From Candidatus Poribacteria bacterium (GTDB lineage Bacteria; Poribacteria; WGA-4E; WGA-3G), in contig OZ251998.1 of assembly GCA_965246985.1 (NCBI GenBank), forward strand, positions 4,191,381 through 4,255,380: a stretch of DNA of 64,000 bases, read 5' to 3'. The notes beneath the pieces are model-generated. The model was not told the DNA's origin. It searched no databases and was given only the letters and a program-made list of their open reading frames with translations. This document shows positions 3,816-58,502 of the stretch, in pieces; position 1 is the first letter of the stretch; each line of letters opens with the position of its first letter. The position numbers and the translations under genes are program-made.

Positions 3816-3823
3816 ATCGGATT

Positions 3824-3943
3824 TATAGTAAAGCCCGAAAACACATTGACATTTTAGGGAATAATACTTCCCTCTTCTTCGCTGGCGGGGTTTGTAACCC
3901 CGCTTTCTGTAGATGTATAGTTAATTGTGGGCTTTACTATAAA
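3824..3943. repeat. MITE-like element family A (TATAGTAAAGCCC...GGGCTTTACTATA ends, internal GCGGGGTTTGTAACCCCGC hairpin)
   Basis: Approximately 120 bp with terminal inverted repeats. A second copy at 38040-38105 plus 39351-39400 is split by an IS630 insertion. Confidence 0.6.
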
Positions 3944-3988
3944 CTGAACCCATGTTAAAATTAACGTCCAAATCCAGAGTGAATACGT

Positions 3989-4264
3989 CCATAAACATTA
4001 CACACCACAGGTGTCAATTTAGTGATTTTTCACGGTATGTAGGAACAGTATCTTTATAGATGCCGCCCCTACGGGGCTTAGGACGCGGTTGCTACAACTT
4101 TCTACACAAATGCCGTCCCTACGGGACTAAAGACAATCCTTTATCTCATATTTTATAGACGATAGGATAGATGTTTCTGTTTGCTAACACTTTTCGCATC
4201 TCAAGAAACAGGTATATTTTTCTTAAATTTACACCTATGACCCATAAGCATTACACACCTAAGG
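3989..4264. repeat. MITE-like element family B, copy 1, with long flanking direct repeats
   Basis: Terminal inverted repeats GGTGTCAATTTAG (4010-) and CTTAAATTTACACC (-4235). Internal paired hairpins ATGCCGCCCCTACGGGGCTTAGG and ATGCCGTCCCTACGGGACTAAAG. Flanked by a direct repeat of about 23 bp, CCATAA(A/G)CATTACACACC..AGG, at 3989-4011 and 4242-4264. Confidence 0.6.
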
Positions 4265-10073: not shown

Positions 10074-11915
10074 ATGGATACCAACAATACACATTCCCCC
10101 AACACAGAATCAGAATCCCGTCCGTCTGCAATAAAGACGCTGCGCCGCTTCTTCTTCGTCGCTTGGCACGCCAGCCGATTCGGAGCGATTGCGCAAGCTC
10201 TTCTGACACTTGTACACGGGTGCATTCCTATAGGGATCCTCTGGGCAAGTCGGGAACTGGTGAATCTCATCGCTGCGATTCTCGACAAGGAAACGGATCC
10301 GAGTTTAGAGACCGCAGCACCATGGGTGATTGCATTGGTTCTTTTGGCAATGTTGCGAAATATAGCAGGCACTTGTGATGGATACCTGCAATGGAAGATG
10401 AAAAACCTTATCGGACTCCACCAGCAGCGCGCCTTACTTGAAGCCACGACGCATATCGACTTTGCCGTTTTTGATCAACCGCAGACGTACGATTTGATAC
10501 AACGGGCGCGACAAGCCTTGGGGCATCGGCTCACTAACCTGCTGCGATTTCTAACGGAGATTGGGCAACTCTGTGTAACACTTGTAGGCTATGGTATCAT
10601 CCTATGGGTAGCGGATCCGTTGCTCGTACTCGTAGTAGTGTTACCCGCTATACCCTCCGCTTGGCTTAAAGTTAGGGCAGCCGAAGGGAGGTACAGCCAC
10701 GATTACGAAGCGACACCTGTACGGCGTATGATGGATTACATGCTGAGTCTACTACTGGGCTCCTCTTCTGGACAGGAAGTGCGACTCTATGGGCTTTTCG
10801 GGACGCTCTTTGGACGCTGGCAAACGAATCATCAAAAATGGAAGAAAGAATCGCTTGCAAAAATCTGGACGGAAGCGAGGGCATCCATCGGTACAACTAT
10901 CGCCGAAGTCGTTGCTTATGCAATAGCGATTGGAATTCTCGCTGCGCGTATTGTGGAAGGCAATCTCACGCTTGGGGATTATGTGATTCTTACCGGCACC
11001 GCTGCATTCTTCCAAGGTGATCTTGAGGGATTGCTTTCCCAAATACAAAACATACTTGAAGACGTACCCTTGCTTCGTGATTTGCATCTCCTCTTAGAAC
11101 GCGCCAAAACAACTCGCACACAGTCAGGAACCGAGATATTTCCGCAGCCTCTACAACATGGCGTAGAGGTCAGCAATTTACGCTTCCGATATCGGGGTGC
11201 AACTGACGATGTACTACAAGACATAAACTTTCATGTACGTCCCGGTGAGATAATTAGCATCGTAGGTGTTAACGGTGCAGGCAAATCAACACTTATCAAA
11301 CTACTGCTCGGATTATACCAGCCTGATGATGGAACAATCCGATATGATGACAAAAATATCGCCGCAATTGCCCCGGAACAGATAGCCCTGAACTGTGCCG
11401 CCGTTTTCCAAGACTTTGCGAGGTTTCGTAGACCTGTGCGAGAAGAATTGGTGCCAGGTCCACCAAACCTCCATATTGACGACGACGCGCTCTGGCGCGT
11501 CATCAATGCGGTTGGCATCGAGGAACGTTTTCAAACCCTTCCGCACGGCTTGGATACTTTCCTTGACCCTTCACTCGGTGAAGAAGGTGAAGGTGCAGAG
11601 TTATCTGGTGGAGAATGGCAAAAAGTCGCACTTGCACGGGCTTTAGTCAGAAATCCGCAAGTCCTTGTTCTTGACGAACCGACTGCAGCGTTGGATCCAC
11701 AGGCTGAAGTCGAACTCTACCAACGTTTCGTTGAACTTGCTGCTGGACGGATGACATTCTTGATTTCACATCGAATCGGATCCGCGCGTCTCGCTGACCG
11801 TATCTTGGTATTAGATTCGGGTCGTATTGTTGAAGACGGCACACATGAAGCGTTACTTGCCCGAAATGGGCTCTACGCCAGATTTTTTCAAGCACAAGCA
11901 CACTGGTACCAATAA
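10074..11915 (+). CDS. ABC transporter, fused permease/ATP-binding protein (type I exporter, MsbA-like)
   Basis: Six-TM N-terminal half. Walker A GVNGAGKST, signature LSGGEWQKVALARAL, Walker B LVLDEPTAALD. ATG at 10074 with a GGAGAG RBS (the ORF is open from TTG at 10062). Confidence 0.9.
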   Translation: MDTNNTHSPNTESESRPSAIKTLRRFFFVAWHASRFGAIAQALLTLVHGCIPIGILWASRELVNLIAAILDKETDPSLETAAPWVIALVLLAMLRNIAGTCDGYLQWKMKNLIGLHQQRALLEATTHIDFAVFDQPQTYDLIQRARQALGHRLTNLLRFLTEIGQLCVTLVGYGIILWVADPLLVLVVVLPAIPSAWLKVRAAEGRYSHDYEATPVRRMMDYMLSLLLGSSSGQEVRLYGLFGTLFGRWQTNHQKWKKESLAKIWTEARASIGTTIAEVVAYAIAIGILAARIVEGNLTLGDYVILTGTAAFFQGDLEGLLSQIQNILEDVPLLRDLHLLLERAKTTRTQSGTEIFPQPLQHGVEVSNLRFRYRGATDDVLQDINFHVRPGEIISIVGVNGAGKSTLIKLLLGLYQPDDGTIRYDDKNIAAIAPEQIALNCAAVFQDFARFRRPVREELVPGPPNLHIDDDALWRVINAVGIEERFQTLPHGLDTFLDPSLGEEGEGAELSGGEWQKVALARALVRNPQVLVLDEPTAALDPQAEVELYQRFVELAAGRMTFLISHRIGSARLADRILVLDSGRIVEDGTHEALLARNGLYARFFQAQAHWYQ

Positions 11916-12456
11916 TACCAAATTAACCCCATTTGTAGCGCGAGGTCCCTGTGCCTCGCAATGCTGACTTGATCAAAAAGATTCTAAGCAAGTTAAGTTG
12001 GTATCATACCAAATTAACCCCATTTGTAGCGCGAGGTCCCTGTGCCTCGCAATGCTGACTTGATCAAAAGACTTCTAAGCAAGTTAAGTTGGTATCATAC
12101 CAAATTAACCCCATTTGTAGCGCGAGGTCCCTGTGCCTCGCAATGCTGACTTGATCAAAAGATTCTAAGCAAGTTAAGTTGGTATCATACCAAATTAACC
12201 CCATTTGTAGCGCGAGGTCCCTGTGCCTCGCAATGCTGACTTGATCAAAAGATTCTAAGCAAGTTAAGTTGGTATCATACCAAATTAACCCCATTTGTAG
12301 CGCGAGGTCCCTGTGCCTCGCAATGCTGACTTGATCAAAAGATTCTAAGCAAGTTAAGTTGGTATCATACCAAATTAACCCCATTTGTAGCGCGAGGTCC
12401 CTGTGCCTCGCAATGCTGACTTGATCAAAAGATTCTAAGCAAGTTAAGTTGGTATA
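11915..12456. repeat. tandem array of six 90-91-bp units of the IS630-related MITE (family M91)
   Basis: Unit ATACCAAATTAACCCCATTTGTAGCGCGAGGTCCCTGTGCCTCGCAATGCTGACTTGATCAAAAGATTCTAAGCAAGTTAAGTTGGTATC repeated head-to-tail six times. It starts at the stop codon of the upstream ABC gene and ends 21 bp before the next ABC start. Confidence 0.9.
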
Positions 12457-12477
12457 AAAAGCAAAGAGGATTCTGGA

Positions 12478-14337
12478 ATGCAGAACGATAATGGAAAATT
12501 GAAGACATGGGGATTGGCTGCCAAAGAAAGTATCATCGCATACTTCCGAACTTTTGCGATCGTCTGGAAGAGTGGTGCACTCGCGCTTGTGGGTATGATG
12601 CTTCTCACGTTATCACTTGGTGTCCTGCCCGCCGGTGATTATTTCGTGACGAAGCACTTAGTCAATGCAATTACCGCTGCTATAGGTGATGCTAACTGGT
12701 GGCGACAAGTTCTCCCGTGGCTTTTAGGTCTCCTCGGTTTACAAATTTATAGTACGCTTGCAGACCAGTTACGAGAACCGCTGCGCTTCTACGTCCGCGA
12801 AAACATTGAAGTTTGGATTAGTGAGGGTATCGTTCGCAAATCCAATACAATGGAGCTGATTGAATTCCAGACACCTGAATTTCAAAACGCGCTTGCGCGC
12901 GCTCGCACCATGTCTGGTGTAGAACTTGAAGAAATTGTTTGGTGGATCGTTGACAGCATTCAACAATTAATCAGTGTCATTGCGCTCGGTATCATACTGT
13001 GGGGTCTCCATCCATTGTTAGCGTTGCTCCCTACGGTGACCGGTTTAGCTTCTTGGTGGAGTGGTTCACGTTTTGCTGCTGACACCTACGATCTTGATGT
13101 CCAACAGACATCAAAACGGCGAGAGCGAGACGCGTTAGAAGGTATTCTAACGGATCGGGGCGCGGGCAAAGAAGTCCGGTTATATCAAGCGCAGGACCTA
13201 TGGATAGACCGCTGGCAAAGGCTATGGAGAGAATTAATACAGGGACAGCAGGCAATTGAACGTCGCAAAGTTTTTGCACATCTCGCGATCGACATCTCAC
13301 GCGGTTTGTTGTTCGCTTGTTCACTTATTCTATTATTGCTACAAGTCTTTCGGGGTGGGTTGACCATCGGTGAGTATATCGCCGCTGCTACCGCCATCGT
13401 CAGCTTGGACGGCATCTGGAACAGTGTCGCGAGTTATTTTCAGTGGATAGCAGACGATATGCGCCGTTTGTCAGGAGATTTGTACGCGTTTTTGGATCAC
13501 GATGCAGACACAGCATCCGGGTTGAAAACGCCTCCGACAAGCGGATCCCCGTCGGAATCTTATAAAAATTCGTCTTTGATAGCCACACAAGAACCGTCGT
13601 ATCTTCAGATAGAAAACGTTTCATTTCTCTATCCAAATGCGCAAGAGCCAGTGCTAAGCCACGTAAACCTCACATTGAAAAAAGGAGAGCGAGTGGCACT
13701 CGTTGGACCCAATGGTGCGGGGAAATCCACATTGGCACGCCTACTTCTTGGGCTATACAGTCCGCAAACAGGTGTAATTCGTGTGGAGAATATACCCTTA
13801 AATGAAGAAAATCGTCAGGAGTGGTTGAAGCATTGTAGTGCGGTGTTTCAGGATTTCACCTGCTACCACCTCACCGCACGCGAGAATATCATCTTTGGCG
13901 ACTTAGAACATCCTGAACGTATGGAAACGGCAGCAACCGCAGGAGGTGCAGTTTCCGTTATAGACGGACTTGCCGCAGGTTACGAGACTGTGTTAGGACC
14001 CACTTTTGGGGGGCGCGACCTCTCCGGCGGCGAATGGCAACGTATCGCGACAGCAAGGGGTTTTATGCGAGAAACGCCATGGCTGGTGGTTCTTGATGAA
14101 CCGACTGCTGCACTGGACCCATTAGCCGAACAGGCGATCTATGAACGATTTATTGAACGGAGTGCTGGACGTACATCAATGATAATTTCGCATCGACTGT
14201 CTTCAGTCCGCACTTGTGATCGGATTCTTGTCCTTGATAACGGAACAATCATTGAGGACGGGGATCATGAAACGTTATTGGCAAAAGATGGACTTTACGC
14301 CAAGTTCTTCAAGGCACAAGCACAATGGTATGTTTAA
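12478..14337 (+). CDS. ABC transporter, fused permease/ATP-binding protein (paralog of 10074-11915)
   Basis: GPNGAGKST, LSGGEWQRIATARGF, VVLDEPTAALD. RBS AAGAGGA. Confidence 0.9.
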   Translation: MQNDNGKLKTWGLAAKESIIAYFRTFAIVWKSGALALVGMMLLTLSLGVLPAGDYFVTKHLVNAITAAIGDANWWRQVLPWLLGLLGLQIYSTLADQLREPLRFYVRENIEVWISEGIVRKSNTMELIEFQTPEFQNALARARTMSGVELEEIVWWIVDSIQQLISVIALGIILWGLHPLLALLPTVTGLASWWSGSRFAADTYDLDVQQTSKRRERDALEGILTDRGAGKEVRLYQAQDLWIDRWQRLWRELIQGQQAIERRKVFAHLAIDISRGLLFACSLILLLLQVFRGGLTIGEYIAAATAIVSLDGIWNSVASYFQWIADDMRRLSGDLYAFLDHDADTASGLKTPPTSGSPSESYKNSSLIATQEPSYLQIENVSFLYPNAQEPVLSHVNLTLKKGERVALVGPNGAGKSTLARLLLGLYSPQTGVIRVENIPLNEENRQEWLKHCSAVFQDFTCYHLTARENIIFGDLEHPERMETAATAGGAVSVIDGLAAGYETVLGPTFGGRDLSGGEWQRIATARGFMRETPWLVVLDEPTAALDPLAEQAIYERFIERSAGRTSMIISHRLSSVRTCDRILVLDNGTIIEDGDHETLLAKDGLYAKFFKAQAQWYV

Positions 14338-23065: not shown

Positions 23066-23222
23066 TCCGCACAAGGATGGGTGAAACAATCCTACGTGCA
23101 GTTTAAACCGGTTTGCGTCTATTCGGAGATCCAATTCGTAACTGAATTTTTTAGCAGCAGTGGTATCCATCGGAAAACCAGAGCAAGGTTTTCTGATGCG
23201 GTTTTAATCTTACGTTTCGTAT

Positions 23223-23314
23223 TATGCCAAATTAATCCAATTTGTAGCGCGAGGTCCCTGTGCCTCGCAATGCTGACTTGATAAAAAGACTTCTAATCAC
23301 GTTAAGTTGGTATA
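23223..23314 (+). repeat. M91 MITE, solo copy, 24 bp upstream of the Rieske gene start
   Basis: TATGCCAAATTAATCCAATTTGTAGCGCGAGGTCCCTGTGCCTCGCAATGCTGACTTGATAAAAAGACTTCTAATCACGTTAAGTTGGTATA. Its 3-prime end forms TGGTATAAA. Confidence 0.85.
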
Positions 23315-23337
23315 AAACACGAAAAGACGGAGAAATT

Positions 23338-25446: not shown

Positions 25447-25636
25447 GAGGTTGTCTCCTTCTGTTTCTGAGAGTTGTGTATTTCAAGTGATTTATTGCTA
25501 GCCAAGACTCTACATGAGTCTCCTATTTCATATAATACATCATGCGGGAATTAAGAGAAAGAAAAATTGTGAACTTTGCGGCGCGCCAAGAGAGTGAAAC
25601 TGGACACAGTCTCACGTCTACAACGTTTGGGTTGTT

Positions 25637-25897
25637 GGGTTTCGCTATGTCTACCTCATACGTGTCAATTTAGCGATATTTCGCGGTATTTTGTAGCAGC
25701 GTCTCTACAAATGCCGCCCCTCTGGGGCTTGAGTCTTTGGTGTTGATACATGTTTCTACACAGATGCCGTCCCTTTGGGACTCAAGAGGTTTTTTGGGGT
25801 ATACACAGTTTGTGGATAGAACCCGGCGCGGTTGGAAACCGCGCCTACCGGGCCTGAAGGACCGCTAAATTGACACCTATGGGTTTCGCTATGTCTA
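25637..25897. repeat. MITE-like element family B, copy 2, flanked by a 17-bp perfect direct repeat
   Basis: Direct repeat GGGTTTCGCTATGTCTA at 25637-25653 and 25881-25897. Inverted repeats GTGTCAATTTAGCG (25663-) and CGCTAAATTGACACC (-25877). Internal hairpins ATGCCGCCCCTCTGGGGCTTGAG and ATGCCGTCCCTTTGGGACTCAAG. Confidence 0.65.
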
Positions 25898-25986
25898 TCT
25901 TCACTAAGGTGATGTAACTCAAAATCCATTGTTTCCCATGAAATATTTAGACGTGCTACAAGTCTCTCTGCGAATTGCTTAAACAT
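25879..25986 (-). pseudogene. 5-prime remnant (about 20 codons) of a fourth copy of the 7-TM paralog family, truncated at the MITE-B insertion
   Basis: MFKQFAERLVARLNISWETM matches the N-termini MLKQIAKRLVGHKQVSWETM, VSWQAMQG and FSWDAIRG of the three downstream paralogs. The reading frame then runs into the MITE flank. Confidence 0.55.
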
Positions 25987-26110: not shown

Positions 26111-26440
26111 TGCATTATTGCGCCTCTTACATGCGGAAACCTCCTATGAGTTTCAAAATCTCTGAAATGCGAATTTATTTTTCAGATTTGGTATCATAAA
26201 CGCCTTGTGTTAGTTAACAGTTAGTATGTTTTGGTTTCACATATTCATCTTATTTACTGTTCAAATTTGGAAACTTTCGCTTTTTGATTCCTTTTTAGAA
26301 CACGAATATTCCAATGCAGGAGCAGCAGAAGGATTAAACTCCTATTTGTCCAGACAATATCCAGATATATGTAAAATTGAAAATAACAAAGAGTTAACTG
26401 GCACAAGTCGTATCATAAGAAAAGATATAGAAGTCCACCA

Positions 26441-27139
26441 TTAGGGGAACACTAATGCCATGGTTAGCACAATTCCTATTCCGATGTATACGACACCTAA
26501 AAATACGAAAAGAGGGACAATAGACTTGACTTTGACATCGGCAATTTTCCGCACGATCAAAAGCATCCACGCAATTATGGCAGATCCATTCAAAACATAA
26601 GCTATTCCCTGATCCCAATATACCTCTACATAAGACATATCAGAAACGATTGCATTTATCACCACTTGCGCATTGCAGATGAGTGCGTACCCGCTCGCGA
26701 GGACAAAGAAAGCAACACCAATAAGGAGCGAGCGAGTTATAGGCGCTACCTTTAGCAGCACGAAGACCCATACAAAAATTGCGAGGCTATAAAAAATTCC
26801 CGCCAACCTCGGCATCCAACTAACATCTGCATCCAGTGATATAATCATGCCAATACCGAGTCCAATAATACAGCAGCCTGACACAATGATAACCCCAGAA
26901 CCGATTGTCACCGATGTAGGTCGATTCTCAAGAAACAGCGGATGGTTGCCGAGAAAAACCCACATTGTACCAAATAGGATCAGCATCCCTCCTGTCAAAG
27001 CTATCAAAGGTGAATAGACTGCGCTATTCCAAAGCGCGGCCTGGAATATTAGTGCGAGGCAAATCGACAAATCGCCTGCCATCGTTTCCCATGAAACCTG
27101 CTTATGCCCTACCAATCTTTTTGCAATTTGTTTCAACAT
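26441..27139 (-). CDS. uncharacterised 7-TM integral membrane protein, paralog 1 of 3
   Basis: 232 aa, mostly hydrophobic helices. Conserved N-terminal K(R)xxxVSWETM, mid FLENRPTSV and C-terminal LNGSAIIAWMLLIVRK motifs are shared with the two neighbours. Confidence 0.6.
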   Translation of the reverse strand: MLKQIAKRLVGHKQVSWETMAGDLSICLALIFQAALWNSAVYSPLIALTGGMLILFGTMWVFLGNHPLFLENRPTSVTIGSGVIIVSGCCIIGLGIGMIISLDADVSWMPRLAGIFYSLAIFVWVFVLLKVAPITRSLLIGVAFFVLASGYALICNAQVVINAIVSDMSYVEVYWDQGIAYVLNGSAIIAWMLLIVRKIADVKVKSIVPLFVFLGVVYIGIGIVLTMALVFP

Positions 27140-27173
27140 GTTCCCTCCTACTCCGGTTTAAGCCTGTTTCCCA

Positions 27174-27869
27174 CTAAAAGATAGCATCCAAAATATGTGT
27201 AATGCCGACTGCAACAATCCCCACTCCAGCAATCATTAAACATATTACGAATACCTTACGATTTGTAATAGACGTTTTCCGCGTAACGAGGTGCGTCCAC
27301 CCAACCATTGCACCACCATTTAAAATATGGGCTATCCCTTCTCCCCACGTCAATGTTATCTGAGTTTGATCAAAAAGGACTGTTTTTACTGACAGGATAC
27401 CCAAAATTAGAGAGTATACACCTGCAAGAGCAAAGAGAACGATAGCAATAAGCGGTGGACGGGTTAGTGGCGATATTTTCACAACCACGAATGTCCACGC
27501 CAAAACCCCAAGACTTGCACAAACCAAAGTGACACCCGCTACCCAGCTATCTCCAATTGCTGTTGGGGTTTCAGCAAATAGTCTTTCCAAAAGTGTACCA
27601 ATTGTCAACCCTCCAACGCCACCTCCTAAAGCGACCATGATTATGGAAGCAGTAAACACAGAAGTCGGCTTATTCTTAACGTATAGTGGACTGATGCCGA
27701 GACAAATTAACATCGTACCGATGCCAATCAAGGTGAATATGCTATTTATATCCGGACGCGATACGAAAAATATGAAAACCGAAATCCCTTGCATCGCCTG
27801 CCATGAAACTCCGTTGTTTTTTGTAGATTCATTAGTCATTTTGACTCCTTTTCTAAGGGAAGACAGCAC
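27174..27869 (-). CDS. uncharacterised 7-TM integral membrane protein, paralog 2 of 3
   Basis: 231 aa. VSWQAMQG, YVKNKPTSVF, LNGGAMVGWTHLVTRK. Confidence 0.6.
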   Translation of the reverse strand: MLSSLRKGVKMTNESTKNNGVSWQAMQGISVFIFFVSRPDINSIFTLIGIGTMLICLGISPLYVKNKPTSVFTASIIMVALGGGVGGLTIGTLLERLFAETPTAIGDSWVAGVTLVCASLGVLAWTFVVVKISPLTRPPLIAIVLFALAGVYSLILGILSVKTVLFDQTQITLTWGEGIAHILNGGAMVGWTHLVTRKTSITNRKVFVICLMIAGVGIVAVGITHILDAIF

Positions 27870-27991
27870 TTGTGAGTTTCATTTTCAAGTTCATCGAAAA
27901 TTGATATTCCCCGGGCAAACTGTAGGGTTCTCGGTCCTTTACCGCTCTACCCAACCTACGACCACATACGCATTTTATTATCGAACTCACG

Positions 27992-28681
27992 TTATATAGC
28001 ATCTATAATATACGAAATTCCTATGCCGATGAAACCGATTCCACAGATGACCAGAACTGGTACGACTAACCTAACTTTACCATGAACCACTTTCCGTGTG
28101 ATTAAAAGCGTCCACGCAATGATTGCACCACCGTTCAAAATTGCTGCCATCGCTTGTCCGGAACTGGTGAATATTTGAGGATCATTCTGACCAATCGACA
28201 GTATAATTGAGCAAACTCCATAGCCGACAGGGTACCCACTCGCCATAGCAAGGAAAATCACGCCAATACGCAACGAGAGAGTATCATGCGATACTTTCAG
28301 AATCACAATACCCCATATCAAGACTGCCAGATTTGCTAACACTGATGCCACTCCAAGCATCCAGTCATTTGCTATAGACATCTTGTTCCCGGAGAACAGA
28401 ACCTCTATGATTGTCGCGACCCCCAATCCGCCAATGCCACTTCCTACTGCAACTAAGATAACGCTCGCAACAAACACAAGTGTGGTCCTGTTTTCACCGA
28501 ACAGGGGTAAAATACTGAAACCAATCCATGCACTGCTGATAAAAATCAATCCTAATGCTGTCGTTACCCCGCCTTCTGTTCCAAGAGTGGTCGGAAGGAA
28601 CGCGAAAGCAAGGAGAACTACGGTGTATCCCCGTATTGCATCCCATGAAAACTGAGTATTCTTTGAAGGCTGATTAGACAT
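27992..28681 (-). CDS. uncharacterised 7-TM integral membrane protein, paralog 3 of 3
   Basis: 229 aa. FSWDAIRG, FGENRTTLVF, LNGGAIIAWTLLITRK. Confidence 0.6.
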   Translation of the reverse strand: MSNQPSKNTQFSWDAIRGYTVVLLAFAFLPTTLGTEGGVTTALGLIFISSAWIGFSILPLFGENRTTLVFVASVILVAVGSGIGGLGVATIIEVLFSGNKMSIANDWMLGVASVLANLAVLIWGIVILKVSHDTLSLRIGVIFLAMASGYPVGYGVCSIILSIGQNDPQIFTSSGQAMAAILNGGAIIAWTLLITRKVVHGKVRLVVPVLVICGIGFIGIGISYIIDAI

Positions 28682-39350: not shown

Positions 39351-39436
39351 AACCCCGCCATTCCGTTGATGTCCAAGTAATTATGTGCTTTACTATAATA
39401 TACGTTTAGGCTCACAGATTTGTCTATTTGAGGTGT

Positions 39437-46694: not shown

Positions 46695-46704
46695 TTAACT
46701 ATAA

Positions 46705-46792
46705 TACCAAATTAACCCCATTTGTAGCGCGAGGTCCCTGTGCCTCGCAATGCTGACTTGATCAAAAGACTTCTAATCAAGTTAATTTGGTA
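46705..46792. repeat. M91 MITE, solo copy with perfect TA...TA flanks, lying 11 bp from the family-D element
   Basis: TA-CCAAATTAACCCC...GTTAATTTGG-TA. The right end gives TTTGGTATAAT. Confidence 0.85.
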
Positions 46793-47000
46793 TAATAAGG
46801 CGTTGATTCGCTATTTTAGCAGCATATCACAATGGTATCAAGTGATAATTTCGGTTCAAAAAGATCGTGAGATTCAAACAGCAAAAAAGGGAACGCCCAC
46901 AAGCGGTGAAGTAAAACTCAGGGATATAAGTGAAACTTCTTGTGGACGGTCCCTATTAGGTTTGTAGCCCGAAGGCTATCTGGATAATACGTTTAACGTA

Positions 47001-55675: not shown

Positions 55676-55857
55676 AATCCTATAAATCCTGATTCAGACA
55701 GATTAGCCATCAGCAGTCAGTCATCGGCAATCAGCACTCAAAGGTTTCCGTGTATCAGTCACCGCTGACAACTGATAACTGAATTCCGCTGTCAATTTCC
55801 TTATTGCCGTTTTCTTGACAATCAATTATACTTAATCTAAGTTTGATATAAGGTCTA

Positions 55858-55948
55858 ATACCAAATTAACCCAATTTGTAGCGCGAGGTCCCTGTGCCTC
55901 GCAATGCTGACTTGATCAAAAGACTTCTAATCACGTTAATTGGGTATA
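55858..55948 (+). repeat. M91 MITE, solo copy 54 bp upstream of the sulfatase start
   Basis: ATACCAAATTAACCCAATTTGTAGCGCGAGGTCCCTGTGCCTCGCAATGCTGACTTGATCAAAAGACTTCTAATCACGTTAATTGGGTATA. Confidence 0.85.
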
Positions 55949-56001
55949 AGTTATACATAAGTTTCCGGACCTACCGGACTAAGAAACTGATAAGGAATAA
56001 T

Positions 56002-57438: not shown

Positions 57439-57904
57439 TGCTATGCAGACACCGCTGGAGACTATAATCGCCCAAATTCGGATTTGCCCAAGCCGGTAGG
57501 CACGGTGTGTAACCGCGCCGGACCTTAGCATCGTAGGCCCCATACGCTATTCGCTATGGGGACCCCGGGTTGAACGGATACCATCAAAACCGTGAAAAGT
57601 CAGGGTCTGTAAAGTTTTTGGCATTAAGTCCCCTAAACTGTTCCAACGCCTTCTAAGAGCGGTTTGTAACCCCGATTGATGACAGAAACCTGTTTATAGC
57701 AGGACGGTTCCTTTCTTGAAAATTAATTTGACATCGCCATAAAACTATAGTATACTTATAATAAGTATATCAAAGATGATTCTCAGACCTTGCGTCCTCC
57801 AAAGGTTCACATCCGACCCACGTAGAAGCGGAAAACAGAAGCCGACATGCAGAACCCTAATAAAAACACGACAACGGACGGCATTAGAAGAAATGAATAA
57901 CATA

Positions 57905-58050
57905 TCTCGTCTCAAACGCAAAAAGGGTCTCAAACGCAAAATAACGCAAAACGCAATCAGAAGAACCGCGGAACCACACGCTTTACAACGCACACATTTT
58001 GCGTTGAGAGCCGAAAAAAGGGGCAAAACGCAAACGCAAACGCAATCCGT
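57905..58050. repeat. array of about 9 AACGCAA-type short motifs
   Basis: CTCAAACGCAAAAAGGGTCTCAAACGCAAAATAACGCAAAACGCAATCAG ... GGCAAAACGCAAACGCAAACGCAATCCG. Confidence 0.5.
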
Positions 58051-58223
58051 ACCGCTTCATTGCTGATGAGAAACTTGTAGGCGTCGATCTGTCCGCCGCT
58101 TCGCAACCCGTGAGGAAGTCATTAGAGAAAGCTCCCAAACAAGCAGACAGATAGCACAACCCGTAACGCTTTTCAGTCCGCGTCATTCATATCATCCATG
58201 ATAATCTTCTGCGATTCAGATTC

Positions 58224-58407
58224 GTTTGGAAAAGGTGTGTAAAGTTTTTGACATGAGGTGTTCATTTTGGCTTGTGGGAGGGGTTTGTAACCCCGATTTT
58301 GCAACGCATCTAAGTTTCCCCAGAGGGGCGGCCATCTATGTAGAAAGCGCATCAACCAAACACCTAAGTCCCAGAGGGGCGGAAACCTCTGTGTGGCATT
58401 TTGACAA
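58224..58407. repeat. degenerate MITE-B-like element in inverse orientation
   Basis: Terminal inverted repeats GGTGTGTAAAGTTTTTG / CAAAATATTTACACACC. Internal CCCCAGAGGGGCGGC and GTCCCAGAGGGGCGG are the reverse complements of the MITE-B hairpins. Also contains GGGGTTTGTAACCCCG as in family A. A related fragment is at 57447-57680. Confidence 0.45.
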
Positions 58408-58502
58408 AATATTTACACACCCGAAAAGTCATAGAAATTTGAAAAAAATGTGAAAGTGTGATAAGATGTCTATCAAATTCCTATCCTCACAGGAGGGCGT
58501 TG

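Follow-up and report, generated by a model that had tools for sequence, protein, structure and literature searches.

In transposition by DDE enzymes, the length of the target-site duplication equals the stagger between the two sites of strand transfer. Casposons leave duplications of ~14 to 15 bp, and the target of IS231A is GGG(N)5CCC. Members of the IS4 family duplicate about one helical turn of target DNA, 7 to 13 bp (PMC2266710, Table 1). In the family review, this one-turn duplication, a consequence of transpososome geometry, counts as a hallmark of IS4 elements (Tn5, Tn10, and IS231; PMC2266710). The IS231 subgroup has ends of the form CAT-------AA--TAA and direct repeats of 10 to 12 bp (PMC2266710, Table 1), and the ISH8 subgroup has CAT… ends and 10-bp repeats (PMC2266710). 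Longer repeats have been described for other DDE elements. The IS1202 family makes fixed duplications of 16 to 17 and 27 to 28 bp (bioRxiv 10.1101/2022.12.17.520857), and direct repeats of 8 to 514 bp flank IS1634 and IS1549 (PMC2266710). Insertion sequences that target REP sequences include IS1397, ISKpn1, ISPsy8, ISPa11, ISPpu9/10, and ISRm22, and such elements are known in five families (Tobes and Pareja 2006, PMC1525189).

Here, we compare with these systems two short elements, copy 1 and copy 2, that lie in a 64,000-nt stretch of DNA from a Candidatus Poribacteria bacterium (the window). We put the probability at roughly 90% that both are non-autonomous MITEs of an IS4-family insertion sequence with IS231-like CAT ends, whose DDE transposase would duplicate 19 to 20 bp of target DNA.

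Results

Both elements end in 17-nt inverted repeats and are flanked by 19-bp direct repeats

The original prediction described both elements as MITE-like, a description that our analysis supports. They are short (234 and 225 bp), non-coding, and multicopy, with inverted ends, and these ends and the 19- to 20-bp duplications match those of autonomous elements of 1.46 to 1.47 kb (see below). Comparison of the four element ends (CACAGGTGTCAATTTAG, CATACGTGTCAATTTAG, CATAGGTGTCAATTTAG, and CATAGGTGTAAATTTAA) gave the common sequence CAYA(G/C)GTGT(C/A)AATTTA(G/A). The terminal inverted repeat is thus 17 nt long with CA at its outer tip, and this sets the limits of both elements (Table 1). The inverted repeats had been reported as GGTGTCAATTTAG; that sequence is indeed present, but the repeat extends 4 nt farther out, as CAYAG-GTGTCAATTTAG, on 4/4 ends. 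The TAT(GA) spacer that had been placed between the right inverted repeat and the direct repeat is the outer tip of the inverted repeat, and CA...TG ends leave a spacer of zero. On the left, "ACA" and "CCTCATAC" are likewise element or target sequence and not a spacer.

Long direct repeats flank both copies where they had first been located. Their length had been given as a variable 17 to 23 bp; with the CA...TG ends, it is exactly 19 bp at both loci. The two 19-bp flanks abut each element in exact register, with 16/19 identical positions for copy 1 and 18/19 for copy 2, and the chance of such an in-register match is 1e-7 for ≥16/19 and 2e-10 for ≥18/19. When the 50-nt flanks were matched locally without bias, the result was CCATAA(A/G)CATTACACACC for copy 1 (3989-4006 versus 4242-4259, 17/18) and TGGGTTTCGCTATGTCTA for copy 2 (25636-25653 versus 25880-25897, 18/18). 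When 50-nt flanks were drawn from the window in 20,000 random pairs, scores of this size came only from tandem arrays or from these two loci. The target sites of both window insertions are non-palindromic.

Table 1. Positions of the two MITEs, their flanking duplications and internal hairpins, and the member of a second MITE family in the window
Feature	Position	Strand	Sequence or remark
Copy 1, left 19-bp duplication	3987..4005	+	GTCCATAAACATTACACAC; abuts CA end
MITE copy 1	4006..4239	+	234 bp, non-coding, 5'-CA to TG-3'
Copy 1, left inverted repeat	4006-4022		CACAGGTGTCAATTTAG
Copy 1, hairpin 1	4065..4077	+	GCCCCTACGGGGC; within first unit of ~50-bp tandem module
Copy 1, hairpin 2	4115..4127	+	GTCCCTACGGGAC
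Copy 1, right inverted repeat	4223-4239		TTAAATTTACACCTATG
Copy 1, right 19-bp duplication	4240..4258	+	ACCCATAAGCATTACACAC
Copy 2, left 19-bp duplication	25638..25656	+	GGTTTCGCTATGTCTACCT
MITE copy 2	25657..25881	+	225 bp, 5'-CA to TG-3'
Copy 2, left inverted repeat	25657-25673		CATACGTGTCAATTTAG
Copy 2, hairpins	25716-25728 and 25769-25781
Copy 2, REP-like hairpin	25825..25847	+	GGCGCGGTTGGAAACCGCGCC; palindrome type favored as target by the IS family
Copy 2, right inverted repeat	25865-25881		CTAAATTGACACCTATG
Copy 2, right 19-bp duplication	25882..25900	+	GGTTTCGCTATGTCTATCT
"Third copy"	58234..58421	-	ends GGTGTGTAAAGTTTTTGACA / TGACAAAATATTTACACACC; second MITE family

Related genomes carry a single 19-mer at both loci

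For copy 2, we used the flanking 230-aa protein to find contigs encoding close homologs. In L115 and L116 (flank protein 97% identical), copy 2 is absent and colinear flanks surround a single 19-mer, CTTAGTGA-AGGTAGACATAGCGAAACC-CAACAACCC. The central AGGTAGACATAGCGAAACC is the reverse complement of the 19-mer duplicated around copy 2, and the L115/L116 version is identical to the left copy in the window. When the window was reconstructed without copy 2 and one repeat, it was colinear with L115/L116 across the junction. For copy 1, an exact-sequence lookup of the flanking 610-aa DUF3352 protein gave no match, and homologs were used instead (orthologs of 83% identity; L127 and L128). Their intergenic region reads GAGTGAATAA-GTCCATAGGCTTAATATAC-CTAAGGAGAAATC (right flank at another extent, CTAAGGAGAAATCATAATG), with one 19-mer, both flanks conserved, and copy 1 absent. 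Contigs L117 to L124 and L125 to L126 were too diverged or rearranged and were left out as empty sites. A search for empty sites had been proposed together with the original prediction, and its outcome, one 19-mer at both loci in related Poribacteria genomes, identifies the repeats as true target-site duplications.

We also considered whether the copy 1 target (…ATTACACACC) is the end of a second MITE family (…ATTTACACACC). The empty site reads CTTAATATACC, with no element there, and this candidate was rejected.

In L114, which is ~99% identical to the window, a 70-bp deletion at the left tip of copy 2 takes the last 9 nt of the inverted repeat, the adjoining 19-bp repeat, and 42 bp of flank. 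The copy 2 locus is therefore known in three states: empty, full, and end-deleted. This comparison aligns L114 2790-2900 with window 25560-25720; window 26200-26409 is also missing from L114. Beside copy 2, 61 nt at window 25926-25986 (minus strand) are what is left of the 5' end of a gene paralogous to three ~230-aa membrane-protein genes (26441-28681), and a 76-aa ORF (25756-25986) continues this remnant into the MITE.

Autonomous elements with the same ends encode a single IS4-family transposase

The window is without a transposase of this IS4 lineage; an autonomous copy sits in a genome ~99% identical to it. This copy is an intact 1,461-bp element (L132 1374-2834) that encodes the protein P0347. 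Its ends are perfect, and the duplicated target, GTGCGGTTAGGAAACCGCAC, matches at 20/20. By BLAST, L114 and L132 match the window at 98.5 to 99.7% identity plus indels and, judged on this basis, are from a close relative of the window genome and not the same sequence. Two identical 1,470-bp elements, with ends as in the MITEs, lie in one MAG (L003 3268-4737 and L023 5286-6755). They occupy different sites, have 19/19 duplications, and contain one ORF of 472 aa. In the autonomous elements, we found no second gene, no hairpin modules, and no integrase or Cas1.

The L003 transposase matches Pfam DDE_Tnp_1 (PF01609, 6.3e-21) and the NCBIfam model of the IS4 family (NF033592) at 195 bits, with a cutoff of 115. 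The IS1634 model (NF033559) reached 38.9 bits against a cutoff of 100. In the NCBIfam scan at E<=0.01, IS4 and this sub-threshold IS1634 match were the only results, and IS1202 gave no match. The transposase has >450 homologs, of which the best 120 of >450 are 441 to 475 aa long; among the matches listed, the sole name given for homologs is "IS4 family transposase [Candidatus Poribacteria bacterium]".

We aligned six transposases (L003, P0347, L130, L131, L134, and L133). The catalytic residues D121, D193, and E327 are invariant, and their spacers of ~71 and 133 residues agree with the D(60-110)D(100-150)E spacing of the IS4 family. In the YREK motif, Y(2)R(3)E(6)K, the R, E, and K are conserved with the right spacing; the tyrosine position is V in the poribacterial proteins, L in Herpetosiphon, and Y in Chlorohelix and the IS231-like proteins. 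The clade with long duplications is without the 16-aa and 5-aa segments found in IS231-like proteins. Sequence identity is 27 to 28% to IS231-like proteins of Bacillus/Clostridium and 32 to 35% to plasmid-borne IS4-family transposases of Herpetosiphon and Ca. Chlorohelix. A PDB profile search with the transposase reached Tn5 transposase at no better than E = 0.33, in the YREK region. Structure prediction for P0347 (37 sequences) had a pLDDT of 57 with meaningless Foldseek hits, and a Tn5-like fold was not confirmed.

Duplications of 19 or 20 bp are family-wide and often take in a REP-like palindrome

An end-motif scan of one genome per GTDB species found at least 113 loci. Among the matches listed (80 titles), all are from Candidatus Poribacteria MAGs except for three contigs of one "uncultured bacterium" MAG, and the fetched loci include 69 copies of <700 bp. 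We identified 46 distinct copies with a recognizable duplication in the fetched loci. The duplication is 19 bp in 25 of these and 20 bp in 18 (19 or 20 bp in 43/46), with 18, 21, and 23 bp found once each; it is perfect in 22/46 and non-palindromic in 24/46. The original prediction had recommended a survey of genome copies, and the flank structure proved consistent. Its description of the repeats as locus specific was also borne out, the duplicated sequence being different from locus to locus. A clean duplication is missing in 35/74 simple poribacterial elements, several of which are visibly decayed or have indels and others of which have unrelated flanks; decay, nesting, or recombination accounts for these copies.

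In about half of the cases, the target is a REP-like palindrome that is duplicated whole, with the symmetric consensus 5'-G|GTGCGGTT-N3-4-AACCGCAC|C-3'. Its usual context is …CCGGTAG-hairpin-CGGA…, with GTAG ahead. The 24 non-palindromic targets mostly have GT at the start and C at the end. The same REP-like hairpin is found on its own as well (91 solo copies in the fetched loci), and also inside many MITEs, copy 2 included, and this double occurrence explains the nested and tandem arrays in L010, L039, and L059. In these arrays (L010 3140-5159, L039 4683-5249, and L059 914-4230), copies of the REP-like hairpin stand in alternation with MITEs and a frameshifted autonomous copy, and the two hairpins that border the insertion sequence in L010 point in opposite directions. 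This pattern would be consistent with recombination and re-insertion into duplicated hairpins. Tandem REP doublets, sought as footprints of excision, were not found; the search returned generic small tandem repeats only.

Internal hairpins and other repeats of the window

Both copies contain the paired internal hairpins GCCCCnnnGGGGC and GTCCCnnnGGGAC, as had been reported. The ~50-bp hairpin module is present in ~46% of poribacterial MITEs with these ends and in 0 autonomous elements. The hairpins had nothing significant in Rfam, with one hairpin giving a sub-threshold match, and a promoter/terminator scan returned background level only.

What had been taken for a degenerate third copy is not a member of this family. 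It has different ends (GGTGTGTAAAGTTTTTG...), and the internal hairpin module is the only feature in common. It belongs to a second MITE family whose copies in other genomes have ~11-bp duplications (11- to 12-bp repeats in L006 and L075), and the missing long repeat in the window is thus expected. A further left end of this second family (ends GGTGTGTAAAGTTTTTGGCA) lies at 57604, and the flank there shares GAAAAGTCA with the flank after 58421, which suggests that 57604-58421 is an 818-bp composite or nested pair with an ~9- to 11-bp duplication.

Relative to L127/L128, the window has a further ~120-bp insertion at 3818-3945, with inverted ends TAGTAAAGCCC…GGGCTTTACTA and the internal hairpin GGCGGGGTTTGTAACCCCGCC. 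It resembles a member of another, third MITE family and adjoins copy 1; a partial relative lies at 39354-39398. A separate repeat family consists of a 90-bp unit, present as ~seven tandem repeats and solo units (11892-12522, 23216-23317, 46696-46797, and 55850-55951; families D1, D2, and D4) and also found beside genes in L114.

Long duplications also occur in distant relatives

The IS231 end consensus is fitted by both the poribacterial CATAGGTGTCAATTTA(A/G) and the CATAGGCATCAAGCTAAG of environmental relatives. We applied one end-and-repeat finder to all relatives and to a control. The positive control, an IS231-like Clostridium element (L134), gave 11 bp with the same script; on Chloroflexota plasmids, the insertion sequence of Herpetosiphon pHAU01 gave 19 to 21 bp and that of the Ca. 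Chlorohelix plasmid 20 bp. A metagenome scan yielded 80 relatives with CATAGGCATCAAGCTAAG ends (L135 to L214; soil and sediment). Among the 57 of these with enough flank, direct duplications of 19 to 21 bp are present in 16, several of them non-palindromic, and the flanks are inverted repeats of each other in 11. The remaining 30/57 have unmatched flanks, often two different ~20-bp GGGC…GCCC hairpins in a GTAG/CTAC context. Because these are short-read contigs that run across a repeat, chimeric flanks are likely; either chimeric assembly or frequent recombination between copies may explain the unmatched flanks.

Discussion

The elements described here resemble those of the IS231 and ISH8 subgroups in having a single-ORF DDE_Tnp_1 transposase with an NCBIfam IS4 match, a length of ~1.45 kb, 5'-CAT ends, and a symmetric target with defined ends. 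They differ in the duplication, which is 19 to 20 bp (~two helical turns, roughly double the usual IS4 length) here and 10 to 12 bp there, and which falls outside the IS4 norm of 7 to 13 bp as well as the IS231 norm. They also differ in the target, which here is a 19- to 20-bp REP-like palindrome, and in their hosts, which here are Poribacteria, Chloroflexota, and environmental bacteria. The main DDE precedent is IS1202 (ISTde1 and IS1202 subgroups), whose ~1.5-kb DDE elements also make fixed, unusually long duplications. However, the IS1202 transposase is unrelated, its ends are different, and it favors XerCD/dif-like sites rather than REP hairpins. IS1634 and IS1549 are IS4 related and have long repeats, but theirs vary from copy to copy, whereas those described here are fixed at 19 to 20 bp. 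REP-targeting insertion sequences share the landing site, and one of them, ISRm22, is a member of the IS4 family. Those elements break the REP and make a 0- to 6-bp duplication; here, cutting at the outer edges leaves a complete stem-loop on both sides. Casposons likewise have inverted ends and a longer-than-usual duplication, but they span several kb and encode Cas1 and a polymerase, and nothing alike is tied to these ends.

In the MITEs, nothing of the insertion sequence is left but the 17-bp terminal inverted repeats (CATAGGTGTCAATTTAG); hairpin modules, and no transposase-gene remnants, make up the interior. In the mechanism that we propose, the MITEs would be moved in trans by the 441- to 472-aa DDE transposase of the 1.46- to 1.47-kb autonomous copies. 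The two transposon 3'-OH ends would attack the two target strands at a distance of 19 bp (19 or 20 across the family), a stagger of ~two helical turns as opposed to ~one in other IS4 members, and gap repair would then produce the 19-bp duplication. A stagger fixed at 19 to 20 bp would place the attacked phosphates ~one helical turn farther apart than in Tn5, Tn10, and IS231. The enzyme would prefer the symmetric REP-like palindrome and cut at its outer edges, with duplication of the complete hairpin as the result. The symmetry of the GT…AC consensus points to recognition of one edge by each protomer. Because the length is equal at non-palindromic insertions, the spacing is probably dictated by the protein complex and not by extrusion of a cruciform; the palindrome preference may still stem from the formation of a cruciform or hairpin. 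The support for this model is wholly comparative, and no transposition was observed.

The original prediction saw the repeats as too long for common DDE transposases, which it limited to 2 to 14 bp, and turned to site-specific recombinases or Cas1/casposase-like integration. That limit is too strong, given the lengths known from the IS1202 family (16 to 17 and 27 to 28 bp) and from IS1634/IS1549 (8 to 514 bp). The proposed origin also fails to fit the autonomous elements, which share the 17-bp ends and the 19- to 20-bp duplications and whose only ORF is a DDE transposase. We therefore consider it very unlikely that the repeats are att cores duplicated by a tyrosine or serine recombinase or are products of casposon-like integration by Cas1, even though 19 bp is above the usual DDE range and casposon duplications are also long. 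Each locus has its own duplicated sequence and no att core is common to them, while the core of a recombinase would be constant; the CA...TG ends are DDE-like; and every observation is explicable without an integrase or Cas1. A further possibility is that the mobilizing enzyme comes from IS1202 or IS1634/IS1549 and not from IS4 proper. Those families do make long repeats, and the transposase has a weak match to the IS1634 HMM. That match is far under its cutoff, though, while the IS4 model scores well over its own, and no further NCBIfam family appears at E<=0.01. The duplication length is fixed rather than variable, and the ends agree with the IS231 consensus. Such an enzyme is very improbable.

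Two other explanations concern the repeats themselves. The element might be longer than we have drawn it, with the halves of the palindrome belonging to an inverted repeat of 25 to 28 nt and the loop alone (4 to 12 bp) duplicated, which is a normal IS4 length. At palindromic targets, this arrangement is indistinguishable from ours, and the inverted repeat of the L132 element can be extended to 28 nt with a 4- to 12-bp "duplication" left over. It becomes highly improbable in light of the 24/46 duplications that are non-palindromic and yet still 19 to 20 bp long and abut CAT...ATG, and of the two window copies, which are non-palindromic and whose empty sites show exactly 19 bp duplicated. Alternatively, the direct repeats could have existed beforehand, and the "empty" alleles could have arisen by repeat-mediated deletion, as occurs at 10- to 19-bp repeats in Haloquadratum (PMC3119063). 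Presence and absence alleles alone give no direction of the event. However, the bracketed DNA belongs to a multicopy family whose inverted ends are conserved, a different 19- to 20-bp repeat abuts these ends in exact register at each of >40 unrelated loci, and identical autonomous copies lie at different sites with perfect repeats, all of which makes pre-existing repeats extremely unlikely.

With both elements read as MITEs of an IS4-family insertion sequence, part of what we describe is known already, namely, long DDE duplications (IS1202 and IS1634/IS1549) and REP targeting. What is new is an IS4 lineage with a fixed duplication of ~two turns. A literature search, with ISfinder outside its scope, found no report of IS4-family elements with 19- to 21-bp duplications. 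We give even odds to the broader proposal that these elements form a new IS4 subgroup across Poribacteria, Chloroflexota, and many soil and sediment bacteria. Such a subgroup would be defined by two-turn attack and fixed duplications of 19 to 21 bp, would prefer GTAG-headed REP hairpins and copy the entire REP, and would use the hairpins of its own MITEs as self-made targets, giving rise to nested and tandem arrays. Many MITEs carry a hairpin of the target type, so the family would, if this proposal is true, create its own targets.

The combination of IS4 membership, IS231-type ends, and a duplication of ~two turns offers a natural experiment on the spacing of strand-transfer sites. Annotation pipelines that search only for duplications of 2 to 14 bp will mis-delimit elements of this kind. 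Duplication of the hairpin entire, and not split, is a new mode of REP targeting, and the lineage accounts for a large class of repeats in the genomes of sponge symbionts.
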